This document shows, one piece after another, positions 7,729-36,265 of a stretch of DNA of 64,000 nt. The position numbers and the translations under genes are program-made. Positions within the stretch are counted from its first letter, which is position 1; each line of letters begins with the position of its first letter. Location of the stretch: the IMG/VR virus record IMGVR_UViG_3300030110_002660, one strand, 5' to 3'. The notes below the pieces were generated by a model that was not told the DNA's origin, made no database searches, and was given only the letters and a program-made list of their open reading frames with translations. The DNA comes from an uncultured virus (IMG/VR IMGVR_UViG_3300030110_002660) (taxonomy: Duplodnaviria; Heunggongvirae; Uroviricota; Caudoviricetes).

Positions 7729-8532
7729 ATGTTAGGGCAATCACAATTTTATCACGAAACAATTAGAAAACTAGTAGTAGCTTTCGGAAGTATGTTTAAT
7801 GACATTCATTTAGTTCGTAAGAACAATGCTGGTGTTATTACACAAACTATGAAAGTTCCACTTGCATACGGGCCGAAACAAAAGTTTCTTGCAAGACTTA
7901 GACAAGATGCAACTTTAGATAATAAAGTTGCAGTAACTTTACCTCGTATTGGTTTTGAAATAACTGGTTTAACTTACGACCCAGCAAGAAAATTAAATCG
8001 TGTTCAAAAATATAAAAAAGTTAAAAGTGGTACTGATAAAAAATTAGATACTCAATACATGCCTGTTCCTTATAATTTAGAATTTGCATTATCTATCATG
8101 TCAAAAAATAGTGATGATGGATTACAAATACTAGAACAAATACTTCCATACTTTCAACCAGATTATACTGTAACAATTAATGATAATATTGCAATGGATT
8201 CTAAAAGAGATATTCCTATTATATTAAATAGTATTAGTTACGAAGATAGTTACGAAGGTGATTTTGCTTCAAGACGTTCTATAATATATAATCTTGCTTT
8301 CACATTGAAATTTTATTTGTATGGGCCAGTTACTTCATCAAGTGTTATCAAAACTGTACAAGTCGACCAATATGCAGACTTGCCTGATAAATCTCCTACA
8401 AGAGAACAGAGATATACAGTTACACCTGACCCAACAACAGCAGATGCTGATGATGATTTTGGATTTAATGAAACAACATCTTTCTATCAAGATGCTAAAG
8501 ATTTCAATTCAAACACAGGCGCTGACGAATAA
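7729..8532 (+). CDS. gp15: Tail sheath stabilizer/terminator gp15
   Basis: FYHETIRK, VPLAYGPKQKFLAR, QILEQILPYFQP motifs. Confidence 0.93.
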   Translation: MLGQSQFYHETIRKLVVAFGSMFNDIHLVRKNNAGVITQTMKVPLAYGPKQKFLARLRQDATLDNKVAVTLPRIGFEITGLTYDPARKLNRVQKYKKVKSGTDKKLDTQYMPVPYNLEFALSIMSKNSDDGLQILEQILPYFQPDYTVTINDNIAMDSKRDIPIILNSISYEDSYEGDFASRRSIIYNLAFTLKFYLYGPVTSSSVIKTVQVDQYADLPDKSPTREQRYTVTPDPTTADADDDFGFNETTSFYQDAKDFNSNTGADE

Positions 8533-18517: not shown

Positions 18518-19846
18518 ATGTTTCAATCAAACAATTTACAAGAAAAGTGGCAGCCAGTACTTGAACATCCAGATTTGGGTGTAATCAATGACCCTTATAG
18601 ACGTGCTGTTACTACTGTTATTCTCGAAAACCAAGAAAAAGCGTTAAGAGAAGATAGAAGCTTTTTGAACGAAGCTGCGCCAGCTAACTCAACTGGTACT
18701 AACGTAGATAATTGGGAGCCAATCCTAATTTCATTAGTTAGACGTGCTATGCCTAACTTGATTGCATATGACATTTGTGGTGTGCAACCAATGACAGGCC
18801 CTACTGGTCTTATTTTCGCAATGAGAAGTAGGTCAGTATCACAAACTGGTGCTGAAGCGTTAGTTAACGAAGCTGATTCTGGTTTGTCAAACGATGACGC
18901 TGCTGGTGATTTAACATCATCTGCAATGACTGGAAGCAACCCTGCAACTCTAAACGATTCACCATCTGCTGGTACATACTTGTCACCAGGCGGTATGACT
19001 ACTGCACAAGGTGAAGCATTAGGAGATGCAGCTGCAAATGCTTTCGCAGAAATGGCTTTCTCAATTGAGAAACAAACTGTTACTGCTAAATCCAGAGCAT
19101 TAAAAGCTGAATATTCTATGGAACTCGCACAAGACCTTAAAGCAATTCATGGTCTTGACGCTGAAACTGAGCTTGCAAACATTCTCTCTGCAGAAATACT
19201 TGCAGAAATAAACAGAGAAGTTGTAAGAACAATTTACATTGTTGCTAAGAAAGGTGCCCAAATTAACACTACTACTGCTGGTATCTTTGACTTAGACACA
19301 GACTCTAATGGTAGATGGTCAGTTGAAAAATTCAAAGGACTATTATTCGCTATCGAAAGAGATGCCAACGCTGTTGGTCAACAAACAAGGAGAGGAAAAG
19401 GAAACATAATTATTTGTTCTGCTGATGTTGCATCTGCACTACAAATGGCAGGTGTCCTTGATTACACTCCAGCATTAAACTCTAATCTTAATGTTGATGA
19501 TACTGCAAACACATTTGCTGGTACACTAAACGGAAGATATAAAGTTTATGTTGACCCATATGCTGCAAACGTAGCTGCATCACAATACTATGTGGTAGGT
19601 TACAGAGGTAGTTCACCTTACGATGCTGGTATCTTCTATTGTCCATACGTACCACTACAAATGGTAAGAGCAGTTGGAGAAGATACTTTCCAACCAAAAA
19701 TTGGATTTAAAACAAGATATGGTATCACAGGTAACCCATATGCTTCAGGTGTACTTGCATCTGGAACTGCTGCTGGTGATGTCGGCGCATTAGACGCAAA
19801 CGATAACGTATACTATCGTAGAGTCAAAGTCACGAATTTAATGTAG
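18518..19846 (+). CDS. gp23: Major capsid protein gp23
   Basis: LVRRAMPNLIAYDICGVQPMTGPTGLIFA, KSRALKAEY, YCPYVPL, FQPKIGFKTRYG; probable maturation site FLNE|AAP. Confidence 0.98.
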   Translation: MFQSNNLQEKWQPVLEHPDLGVINDPYRRAVTTVILENQEKALREDRSFLNEAAPANSTGTNVDNWEPILISLVRRAMPNLIAYDICGVQPMTGPTGLIFAMRSRSVSQTGAEALVNEADSGLSNDDAAGDLTSSAMTGSNPATLNDSPSAGTYLSPGGMTTAQGEALGDAAANAFAEMAFSIEKQTVTAKSRALKAEYSMELAQDLKAIHGLDAETELANILSAEILAEINREVVRTIYIVAKKGAQINTTTAGIFDLDTDSNGRWSVEKFKGLLFAIERDANAVGQQTRRGKGNIIICSADVASALQMAGVLDYTPALNSNLNVDDTANTFAGTLNGRYKVYVDPYAANVAASQYYVVGYRGSSPYDAGIFYCPYVPLQMVRAVGEDTFQPKIGFKTRYGITGNPYASGVLASGTAAGDVGALDANDNVYYRRVKVTNLM

Positions 19847-21520: not shown

Positions 21521-21548
21521 AAAAAGGGTGTTAACTTAACACCCTTTT
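21521..21548. terminator. Bidirectional intrinsic terminator
   Basis: Perfect inverted repeat AAAAGGGTGTTAA-C-TTAACACCCTTTT. Confidence 0.8.
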
Positions 21549-21560
21549 AACCTAAATCGC

Positions 21561-21610
21561 TTGCCATTTGTTTACAGTATGTTATAATTATAAGTATAAA
21601 TGTATAAATA
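21561..21610 (+). promoter_or_regulatory. Tandem sigma70-type and late promoters upstream of the candidate ncRNA
   Basis: TTGCCA-16nt-TATAAT with TGn extension (21561-21588), then TATAAATA (21603-21610). Confidence 0.7.
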
Positions 21611-21619
21611 GTTACATAC

Positions 21620-21744
21620 AGGGCAATGAGTGTTACGAAGACTTTAGGCAAGGGTAAATAGAGTCATTAGGACAAGTTAATTAACCCACGTAGAAAATCA
21701 AGAGATTGATACTAATACCTAAAGATTTCACTCATGCCTCCTTA
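21620..21744 (+). ncRNA. Candidate structured non-coding RNA, family unknown
   Basis: GGGC-A-ATGAGTG pairs with CACTCAT-GCCT and CTTTAGG pairs with CCTAAAG, enclosing two hairpins. It has its own promoters and the next gene has a separate late promoter. Confidence 0.6.
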
Positions 21745-21751
21745 AATTTCT

Positions 21752-21759
21752 TATAAATA
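21752..21759 (+). promoter_or_regulatory. Late promoter for gp3 (nearly leaderless transcript)
   Basis: TATAAATA 8 nt before the ATG; no SD visible. Confidence 0.7.
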
Positions 21760-21767
21760 TTCATAAC

Positions 21768-22367
21768 ATGGTTACTACAAATACCTTTTCAAGATTACCT
21801 ACCAAATTAGACTATGCTGCTCCAACGCAGTTTAAGTTTAGTATAGTTAATATGCCTAAAGTGGAATACTTTGTAATTACTGCTAATCTGCCAGGCATAA
21901 GTCTTGATGGAATTTCTCTTCCTACTCCACTCAAAGCAACACAGATTGTTGGAGATGGAATAACATATGATAATTTAAATATAACTTTTATTGTAGATGA
22001 AAACTATGAAAACTATCTTGAACTTCATAATTGGTTAATTGGAATTGGTTTTCCAAAATCAAGAGAACAATTTAAAGATTATAGAGATACTGAATCAACT
22101 AAATTTCCAGGCACTAAATCCAAATATACAAGCAAAGATATTGGAGATACCAAACTTGGAGCTGCAACTTCAGATAAAAGTTTGTATAGTGATGCAACCA
22201 TGACACTTCTTTCTTCTAAACACAATCCTGTTGTTGAAGTTAGATTTAAAGATGTCTTTCCATTATCAATGTCATCATTAGAATATTCCCAAGCTGATAC
22301 CGATGTAACATATTTAACATTGACAGCAGAGTTCGCTTATTCATATTATGATATTGTACCCCTATAA
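21768..22367 (+). CDS. gp3: Tail tube terminator / tail completion protein gp3
   Basis: ANLPGISL, FIVDENYENY.ELHNWL, SDATM..FKDVFP motifs; position between gp23 and uvsY. Confidence 0.85.
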   Translation: MVTTNTFSRLPTKLDYAAPTQFKFSIVNMPKVEYFVITANLPGISLDGISLPTPLKATQIVGDGITYDNLNITFIVDENYENYLELHNWLIGIGFPKSREQFKDYRDTESTKFPGTKSKYTSKDIGDTKLGAATSDKSLYSDATMTLLSSKHNPVVEVRFKDVFPLSMSSLEYSQADTDVTYLTLTAEFAYSYYDIVPL

Positions 22368-28987: not shown

Positions 28988-29064
28988 GCAGGTATAGTAT
29001 AAGTGGCAAGTACACTAGTCGTCCAGATTAGAAACGTGGGTTCGACTCCCACTTACCTGCTCCA
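28988..29064 (+). tRNA. tRNA-Gly(TCC), atypical
   Basis: Cloverleaf: acceptor GCAGGTA/TACCTGC, D stem GTAT/GTAC, anticodon stem CTAGT/ATTAG with loop CGTCCAG, T arm GTGGG-TTCGACT-CCCAC, discriminator T, encoded CCA. Confidence 0.85.
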
Positions 29065-35137: not shown

Positions 35138-36265
35138 TATTANNNNNNNNNNGAAGATTCGATTTATGCTGCTAATATTTTTGTTTCTTATTATAAGGAT
35201 TTTGGTCGTATAGATGATTATTTAAGAAAAGTTAAACTTGAAAGAATGTCGAAATATCCAACTGCATTGCCAGGCATGGGGCCTGAAGATGAATTCTTTT
35301 GTGATTTTGATATGCACCCAAACGATATGGAGTTTTCTCTTTATGAGCCTAAGACATCTGACTTTGTTAACTATCTTGAAATCACAACATCTCACGCAGT
35401 AGAATCATCTATCCCTGGCAAAAAACATTTGTGGATTGTGAAAGAAAAAAATACAAATAAGATTGTTGGATTCATTCGTTTTGGTTCTCCAACTATTAAT
35501 TCAAAACCAAGAAATCTGTTTTTAGGAAAACCATTAGATACATTAAACGCAGATGTGATGAAAAGATTTAATGATTCTTGTATTATGGGATTCATTATTG
35601 TTCCGACACAACCATTTGGATTTAATTATCTTGGTGGAAAATTACTTGCTGGAATTTGTTGTTCTCATTTAGCAAGAGAAACATTGAATAAAAAATATAA
35701 TTCAAATATTTGTATGTTTGAAACAACATCACTTTATGGTAGTGCGAAAACTACTTCAATGTATGATGGTATGAAACCTATGTTGAAATTTGTGGGATTA
35801 ACTGAATCTGATTTTGTACCACTTATAAATGATGACAATTATCTTAAACTAAATGATTGGTTTAAAGATAGGAACAACGGAGATGGATTAGTTCCAGATG
35901 ATGCGTCATCTCGTAAATTAAAAACCCAGTCGAAAATGATATCTATTATTAAGACATCTTTAAAAGAAATTGATATGAAATTATATGATAAGTTTTGTGA
36001 AGTAATAAGTGAAGCAAAAAATCTTACTCAACAAAAAAGACAATATATGTGTACATATGGATTTGATAATGTTAAAGAATATTTTAATTTAGAAACAGAT
36101 ACATTAACAAAGAGAAACAATTACGATAGATTTGAATTTGACAATATAGTTGAATGGTGGAGAAAGAAAGCTATCAATCGTTATGAGAATTTACAAAAAG
36201 ATGGCAGATTAAGAACTGAACTCGAAACTTGGAATCAAAAAAACGATATAGATATTATAAGATAA
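35134..36265 (+). CDS. DUF4338 (DruA-like) domain protein; start inferred across the gap
   Basis: ATG overlaps the gp43 stop and the frame is open from 35153. QPFGFNYLGGKLLA and ETTSLYG resemble DUF4338 motifs. Confidence 0.55.
35143..35152. other. Assembly gap (10 N)
   Basis: Run of N. Confidence 0.99.

Follow-up and report, generated by a model that had tools for sequence, protein, structure and literature searches.

Upstream of gp3 in a T4-like phage contig of 74,013 bases (~41% complete) lies a real, so far undescribed and clade-restricted element, a candidate gene for a structured RNA under a late promoter of its own. Positions below refer to the window, the whole stretch of 64,000 nucleotides that was analysed. 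The initial annotation had described a phage small RNA with late and sigma70-type promoters of its own; homologs, compensatory changes, promoter geometry and empty Rfam scans speak for this, and the stand-alone RNA remains a candidate. It is probable that the element functions as a structured RNA of one sort or another. Since T4 rnaC and rnaD, no function has been known for the stand-alone small RNAs of T4-type phages. Its compactness, predicted ends, natural compensatory variants and invariant core make this RNA suitable for in vitro synthesis, structure probing, cleavage assays and use as bait. Should a host factor prove to be its partner, marine phages related to SAR11 and OM43 phages would have in it an RNA-based tool for host takeover, a significance limited by the narrow distribution and the many comparable uncharacterised phage RNA candidates.

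Predicted fold, distribution and conservation

No ORF of 40 aa or more occurs between the porin-like ORF (ends 21508) and gp3 (starts 21768), so the interval is indeed without a long ORF. A conserved small peptide was considered and rejected, as the window's 11-codon frame starting with ATG is disrupted by a frameshift in homolog L001 and its ATG is missing in L004 and L275. The predicted RNA is a three-way junction (Table 1). Both closing helices of the initial annotation, and its arm 1 (GGGT 21652-21655 with ACCC 21684-21687), are present in the MFE fold. In the comparison with shuffles that the same annotation had named as a check, the MFE was -30.4 kcal/mol (z -3.19, 1/200 dinucleotide shuffles as good), and the segment 21621-21739 has a z of about -3.2 to -3.7. 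Across the homologs z is -3.5 to -6.2 on the + strand, which folds better than the - strand in 6/6. G-U wobble occurs at 4 pairs versus A-C at 2, favouring the + strand as the folded strand.

Table 1. Features of the element and its surroundings, in window coordinates.
Feature	Position	Strand	Remarks
gp23	18518-19846		5' of inserted ORFs
12-bp hairpin after upstream porin-like gene, terminator-like	21522..21548	.	Terminator call on - strand; 4 T on +
sigma70-type promoter match, TTGCCA-16-TATAAT with TG extension	21561..21588	+	11/12; same in L001 and L002; 11/12 in L004 and L275
T4-type late promoter TATAAATA of the RNA	21603..21610	+	Predicted start A21616; spacing calibrated on gp3 loci
Three-way-junction RNA, predicted	21621..21739	+	119 nt (96-119 nt in homologs); fold and alignment
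P1, 5' strand	21621..21632	+	Pairs with 21729-21739; sequence-conserved, 8/11 pairs invariant, no two-sided change
P2, 5' strand	21642..21648	+	Pairs with 21718-21724; two-sided changes at 2 pairs
Arm 1 (P3), variable	21652..21687	+	Loop end G-K-U-M-A-U-U-A; two-sided changes at 3 pairs
Invariant 23-nt core	21692..21714	+	A-rich junction strand plus hairpin of arm 2 (21697-21710; GAGA tetraloop likely); identical in 6/6
Separate late promoter TATAAATA of gp3	21752..21759	+	Octamer match
gp3-like tail tube/terminator gene	21768..22367	+	PHROG 45 tail tube; tail completion matches; 0-3 nt leader

The arm 2 hairpin also exists, but the register first proposed for it, AAUC-AAGA-GAUU, is less likely than the competing AUCAA-GAGA-UUGAU. 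The predicted pairing probability of the GAGA-loop register is 0.89-0.93 in 4/6 homologs, 0.45 vs 0.54 in the window and 0.18 vs 0.01 in L007. Covariation cannot choose between the registers, as neither varies. The hairpin bounding the interval upstream is there too, but its reading as a terminator for that side holds less well, with a call on the - strand only and just 4 T on the + strand; a similar hairpin is found in the L004 and L275 lineages and none in L007. Another terminator-like hairpin lies within gp3 (21816-21831) and is also called in L004 and L275, not in L007; conserved protein sequence alone may explain it.

Homologs were collected as the initial annotation had suggested, and the element was found upstream of gp3 in 7/7 close relatives with upstream DNA. 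Among 33 gp3 loci in viral contigs, nine are 78-98% identical; two of these start inside gp3 and the other seven all carry the element. It is absent upstream of gp3 in the remaining 24/33, as well as, by model search, in 72 further gp3 loci at 50-56% identity (from the best 80 of 511 relatives; 69/72 with at least 300 bases upstream). Searching metagenomes for the core produced 23 matches; nine are family members, among them one new variant (L275), which was found through the core pattern itself. The family comprises six distinct sequences from about four lineages, measuring 96-119 nt helix to helix. The element is present in single copy, and it stays in place even in L007, where a methyltransferase-like ORF stands upstream instead of the porin-like one.

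A pattern scan over 51/64 parts of the collection (120 loci) returned only known members, and in further scans with the core, P1 and P1 plus promoter (14, 50, 14 and 46 loci) neither inspection nor model R1 revealed a new member. Two other pattern scans, in which the gap range left out the family's own spacing, gave 17 and 75 matches lacking the flanking helices, and these were discarded as chance. An intergenic match in Rhodobacteraceae (L421/L265; 22/23 core bases, 22.9 bits) is without P1 and P2 and is unconserved in 40 relatives, and was set aside as a chance match or a promoter-type site. A 15-bit match in phage Mosig sits in apparent coding sequence and was likewise rejected. Model R1 had no match in 101 SAR86-order and 101 SAR11-order genomes, sets that hold no positive control, and none of the cultured phages matches the element. 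Full-text searches of the literature gave no match to the core sequence, and no description of the RNA was found in listings and the opening lines of abstracts. The element is restricted to one clade, with no previous description found.

The six sequences were aligned to fit the proposed structure (alignment A5), and 174/180 cells are paired in this alignment, versus 27-44% in slid controls. The covariation score of this structure-fitted alignment is 0.207 vs 0.115 in shuffles, with 0/500 shuffles as high. Covariation, one of the checks originally suggested, was found at 5/30 pairs that changed on both sides (2 in P2, 3 in P3). The number of covarying pairs alone was reached by 90/500 shuffles, and the changes are inherited among related sequences rather than independent; covariation is thus supportive, not conclusive. 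RNAalifold recovers the same four helices unaided by the proposed structure string. Neither P1 nor arm 2 shows a two-sided change, so that it is energy and invariance that speak for pairing there. Between the window and L002, 82/84 fourfold sites of gp3 are identical, yet there are two full pair swaps in P3. The variant with the P3 pair swaps also occurs in contigs of runs X1, X2 and X5. One P3 pair swap, common to the L002/window contrast and to L275, may stem from recombination.

Taken over the whole element, the lineages are about as similar to one another (identity 0.76-0.81; 0.92 for L004-L007) as they are at fourfold sites of gp3 (0.67-0.82). Among the three lineages found without the core pattern, 72/96 gap-free columns are invariant, with a longest run of 24 (permutation p 0.007). 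Indels fall in unpaired columns in 33/33 cases, in an alignment that was itself fitted to the structure. The scaffold tolerates pair swaps (P2, P3), an insertion of 16 nt in the arm 1 loop, which marks the window lineage, and a 9-10 nt deletion in the internal loop.

Promoters and genomic neighbourhood

The sigma70-type promoter claimed before the element was recovered, at 11/12 with the TG extension, and recurs in homologs. The sigma70 scan is weak taken alone, as 4.0 matches at 9/12 or better turn up in the region after shuffling. The late promoters of the RNA and of gp3 both lie where they had been placed; across the contig the octamer has 19 copies on the + strand against a single one on the - strand, as would suit a late promoter. 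T4-type late promoters have been described as an 8-bp box about one turn upstream of the start (PMC2988020), and the late octamer is 8-10 nt before the closing helix in 6/6 sequences. The suggestion that the RNA could be made throughout infection holds for at most 5/6 variants, those with the 11/12 sigma70 match, L007 having only 9/12.

In distant loci lacking the RNA, the gp3 ATG is exactly 5 nt after the late octamer in 56/72 cases and 6 nt after it in two, and the other 14 have no exact match in the stretch scanned. With a spacing of 5 nt the gp3 mRNA is read as leaderless, and this was used to place the start of the RNA, which we infer to be 3-5 nt before P1, at A21616 in the window. Across the phage group, the late gp3 mRNA would appear to be leaderless (window 21752-21770 and L293-L364). 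Since gp3 keeps its own, ancestral late promoter and is nearly leaderless (0-3 nt), the RNA is unlikely to be a gp3 leader. The added promoters would serve the RNA rather than the genes, as gp3 and uvsY have their own (late and sigma70-type at 22363 and 22389 for uvsY).

Downstream of the RNA there is no terminator (the first 10 nt have a U fraction of 0.4-0.7), so transcription is expected to continue into gp3 and the 3' end would need processing. The tRNA-Gly cassette of the window (28988-29064) has the same layout, with its own promoter, no terminator and a next gene with its own promoter. This divergent tRNA-Gly(UCC) scores only 32.6 bits, and its promoter is of the sigma70 type. Contigs of RNA runs X1 and X2 cross the element into gp3 at flat depth with no joints or end pile-ups, as assembled contigs in which strand and ends are not visible; RNA runs X8, X10 and X12 have no contig over the element.

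The gene order is gp23, three inserted ORFs, the RNA element, gp3, uvsY, two 2OG-Fe(II) oxygenases, a helicase and the late sigma factor. Of the inserted ORFs, one is PagP-like and one porin-like, the latter by eye with a Pfam match that is sub-threshold only and no named relatives found. In its capsid protein the phage shares 75-76% identity with Melnitz (OM43) and Mosig (SAR11), its gp3 is 49% identical to that of Mosig, and the Hsp20 of the contig has 46-52% identity to SAR11 and SAR86 proteins. Genes for translation and RNA in the same genome are tRNA-Ala, tRNA-Gly, a two-piece tmRNA, bS21 and RegA. The phage-encoded ribosomal protein bS21 (L536:3029-3280; G000:C1:65028-65279) corresponds to PHROG 21469.

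Comparison with known RNAs

The Rfam scan proposed in the initial annotation was run on the window and three homolog loci and gave no Rfam 15 family at gathering score. Sub-threshold matches over the element, to SraG (16.2 bits, - strand) and RmaA (22.8 of 57 bits), are chance. As first noted, the element is not a tRNA or tmRNA, nor does it have a tRNA-like (Y RNA) domain: ARAGORN finds only tRNA-Gly in the window, and the GUUCRA T-arm/CCA motif is absent in 6/6. Nor is it a known ribozyme or riboswitch, there being no Rfam match and no hammerhead or glnA motif. The hammerhead has CUGANGA and GAAA core strands at a three-way junction; in the element GAAA is present and CUGANGA is absent in 6/6. 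Bacterial SRP RNA carries a CAGG/AGCA loop below a GNRA tetraloop, a motif absent from the element in 6/6, again with no Rfam match. In 6S RNA two long helices flank a large two-stranded central bubble, whereas the consensus of the element has a 5' junction strand of 1-3 nt and a 4-6 bp arm, and no Rfam match. Decoys of the CsrB/RsmZ type have several GGA motifs in loops, compared with 0-1 GGA per sequence in the element. The packaging RNA of phi29 (~120 nt) has a long helix joining its 5' and 3' ends and a three-way junction, and oligomerises via complementary arm loops. The element is like it in size (~120 nt), in the long end-joining helix and in the junction, but its loops (N-G-K-U-M-A and GAGA) are not complementary on inspection of A5. 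No use of an RNA is known for T4-type packaging.

The species 1 and 2 RNAs of T4 (rnaC and rnaD) are late, small stable RNAs without a known function (PMC9697503). They are 139 and 119 nt long, and the element would, like them, be a small late RNA of a T4-type phage without a known job. It differs in that no similarity above shuffles is seen in 12/12 comparisons and there is no model match. Also, rnaC and rnaD belong to the tRNA cluster, and the marine element has no counterpart of the T-arm-like hairpin at the end of rnaC.

The glnA, manA and wcaG motifs are structured RNAs of marine T4-like phages (PMC2864571, PMC9004378). The element resembles glnA in having a three-way junction and in occupying the same gp23-gp3 slot, which glnA does in distant relatives. 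The marks of glnA are a CGUUC/GAACG P1, an E-loop with AGUA and a place in a gene leader, and the element is without the GAACG closing strand and the AGUA element. None of the three motifs gives an Rfam match to the element, and they sit in the 5' leaders of genes, whereas the gene downstream of the marine element has its own promoter. Glutamine riboswitches were observed before short ORFs in the gp23-gp3 slot at L305:2401-2458, L333:2765-2822, L337:2464-2521 and L321:2689-2746. As far as sequence can tell, the slot takes up RNA cassettes repeatedly.

Model R1 has no match in five two-piece tmRNA loci (Melnitz, Mosig, the contig's own genome and two SAR11 genomes), so the element is not a tmRNA-spacer module as far as these show. 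The permuted two-piece tmRNA gene of the contig lies outside the window beside tRNA-Ala and has a short spacer (G000:C1:70106-70298 and 69994-70066; L536:8107-8299 and 7995-8068). It was overlooked by ARAGORN and has no blastn match among cultured phages. In Melnitz the two-piece tmRNA (L543:750-890) has a spacer of ~140 nt, far longer than that of Mosig, and by eye this spacer holds a short open frame after a Shine-Dalgarno-like GGAGA.

Fremin et al. 2023 report covarying intergenic RNA candidates of IMG/VR phages, 8,495 of them from DNA viruses (PMC10690425). These come from the same collection and are the same kind of object. No match was found in the tables of that paper that were searched, and the main table has no sequence or contig column; the motif may already be among its unnamed candidates.

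Possible roles and rival explanations

Our tentative reading, held at somewhat less than even confidence, is a small phage RNA, free-standing and specific to this clade, whose invariant core would be offered in trans to a protein of host or phage, the RNA serving as decoy or scaffold. It would be a gene with its own promoters inserted upstream of gp3, with transcription starting 3-5 nt before the closing helix from the late promoter and, in most variants, also from the sigma70-type promoter. Cleavage, with trimming up to the closing helix, would generate the 3' end in the manner proposed for the tRNA-Gly cassette, and the paired 5' and 3' ends would give the RNA stability. P2 and P3 would form a scaffold free to covary and tolerant of insertions, while the 23-nt core and P1 would be read by sequence. 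Where a protein or ligand reads an RNA, or where the core is catalytic, one would expect such a variable scaffold around invariant sequence. Binding of a protein in trans is favoured because of the RNA's own promoters, its predicted ends at the closing helix and the lack of an antisense target, a known ribozyme core and an evident expression platform. A first guess for the partner would be a translation or RNA-decay factor, given the tRNAs, two-piece tmRNA, bS21 and RegA of the same genome.

No protein partner, host or mimicked host RNA was found in the SAR86- and SAR11-order genomes, four SAR11/SAR86 genomes and two 16S rRNAs. A more specific possibility, speculative and rather unlikely, is a new class of decoy RNA in which the GAGA-capped hairpin and A-rich junction would imitate a host RNA surface and soak up a translation, RNA-decay or defence protein in streamlined marine bacteria. 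The 16S rRNA of SAR11 has a hairpin with an identical 8-nt AAGAGAUU top. For the antitoxin mimic suggested in the initial annotation nothing speaks in particular, the element being single copy without repeats.

The main rival to a trans-acting RNA, unlikely yet to be taken seriously, is a cis-acting leader (an attenuator or riboswitch-like aptamer), in which the junction would bind a ligand or protein and the closing helix and pyrimidine-rich tail would set early/late read-through into gp3, uvsY, the oxygenases and uvsW. It holds this place because the RNA always precedes gp3, directly upstream in 7/7 viral contigs, and because glutamine riboswitches use the slot in other phages (4/4 distant relatives checked). 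The lack of a terminator after the RNA also fits, and conserved junction nucleotides are typical of aptamers. However, gp3 and uvsY have their own downstream promoters, the predicted accessibility of the gp3 start is alike in long (0.42-0.55) and short (0.44-0.77) transcripts, there is no conserved alternative fold or U-run, and neither Glutamine nor any other riboswitch matches at E up to 10. A small ribozyme or self-processing RNA of an undescribed class, with the invariant junction as catalytic core, would agree with the three-way junction, the invariant A-rich core amid variable scaffold helices and the processing step that the 3' end requires. This is quite improbable given that no Rfam ribozyme matches, the hammerhead core is missing in 6/6 and the promoter already accounts for the 5' end. 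The invariant 23-nt stretch, being partly single-stranded, might instead act as a base-pairing (antisense) sRNA on phage or host mRNA or rRNA, a very improbable role: the longest perfect complement in the phage's own 74-kb contig (~41% complete) is 12 nt, equal to shuffles (mean 12.0), there is no match with up to 3 mismatches in four SAR11/SAR86 genomes, and two 16S rRNAs give no antisense match above shuffles.

Function at the DNA level is improbable as well. The element would then be a transcription-primed (R-loop) origin or a site for a DNA-bending protein, the folded strand being primer RNA or displaced DNA strand. The T4 origin oriF/ori(uvsY), of ~100 bp, has a promoter and an A+T-rich unwinding element (PMC3016281), and the present element, with its sigma70-type promoter in 5/6 variants and its position 0.7 kb upstream of uvsY, recalls it. 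The DNA after this promoter is, at a G+C of 0.34-0.38, above much of the flank and is constrained in sequence, where T4 origins of the oriF/oriG type have an A+T-rich unwinding element behind a pre-late promoter. R-loop formation in T4 is independent of specific sequence and its origins are switched off late (PMC3016281), unlike the present element, which has an invariant sequence and in which the promoter common to all variants is the late one. The IHF consensus WATCAAnnnnTTR (PMC10380432) fits the core on both strands, at 21696 and 21711 (a putative site), but such matches are not enriched in the genome (17 vs 15.0 +/- 3.8) and the four spacer bases ignored by IHF are invariant. There is no change of GC skew at the locus, and wobble pairs favour the + strand. 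A decayed inverted-repeat relic or a promoter spacer without RNA function is the least probable explanation: the narrow distribution and an overall conservation near synonymous-site level would suit it, against which stand the compensatory swaps in P2 and P3, the confinement of indels to unpaired columns of the structure-fitted alignment, the invariant run and the retention of the element while the upstream gene changes.

Some minor observations were made elsewhere. An ORF after the DNA polymerase gene of the window (35246-36265) has a Druantia DruA-like Pfam match. In unrelated viral contigs (L497, L501 and L505, ~601-720), a 120-nt stretch is closed by a perfect inverted repeat of 12 bp, which itself lies within longer inverted repeats, and another unrelated virus (L135:163-318) has a 45-85 nt repeat in three dispersed copies near the contig end.
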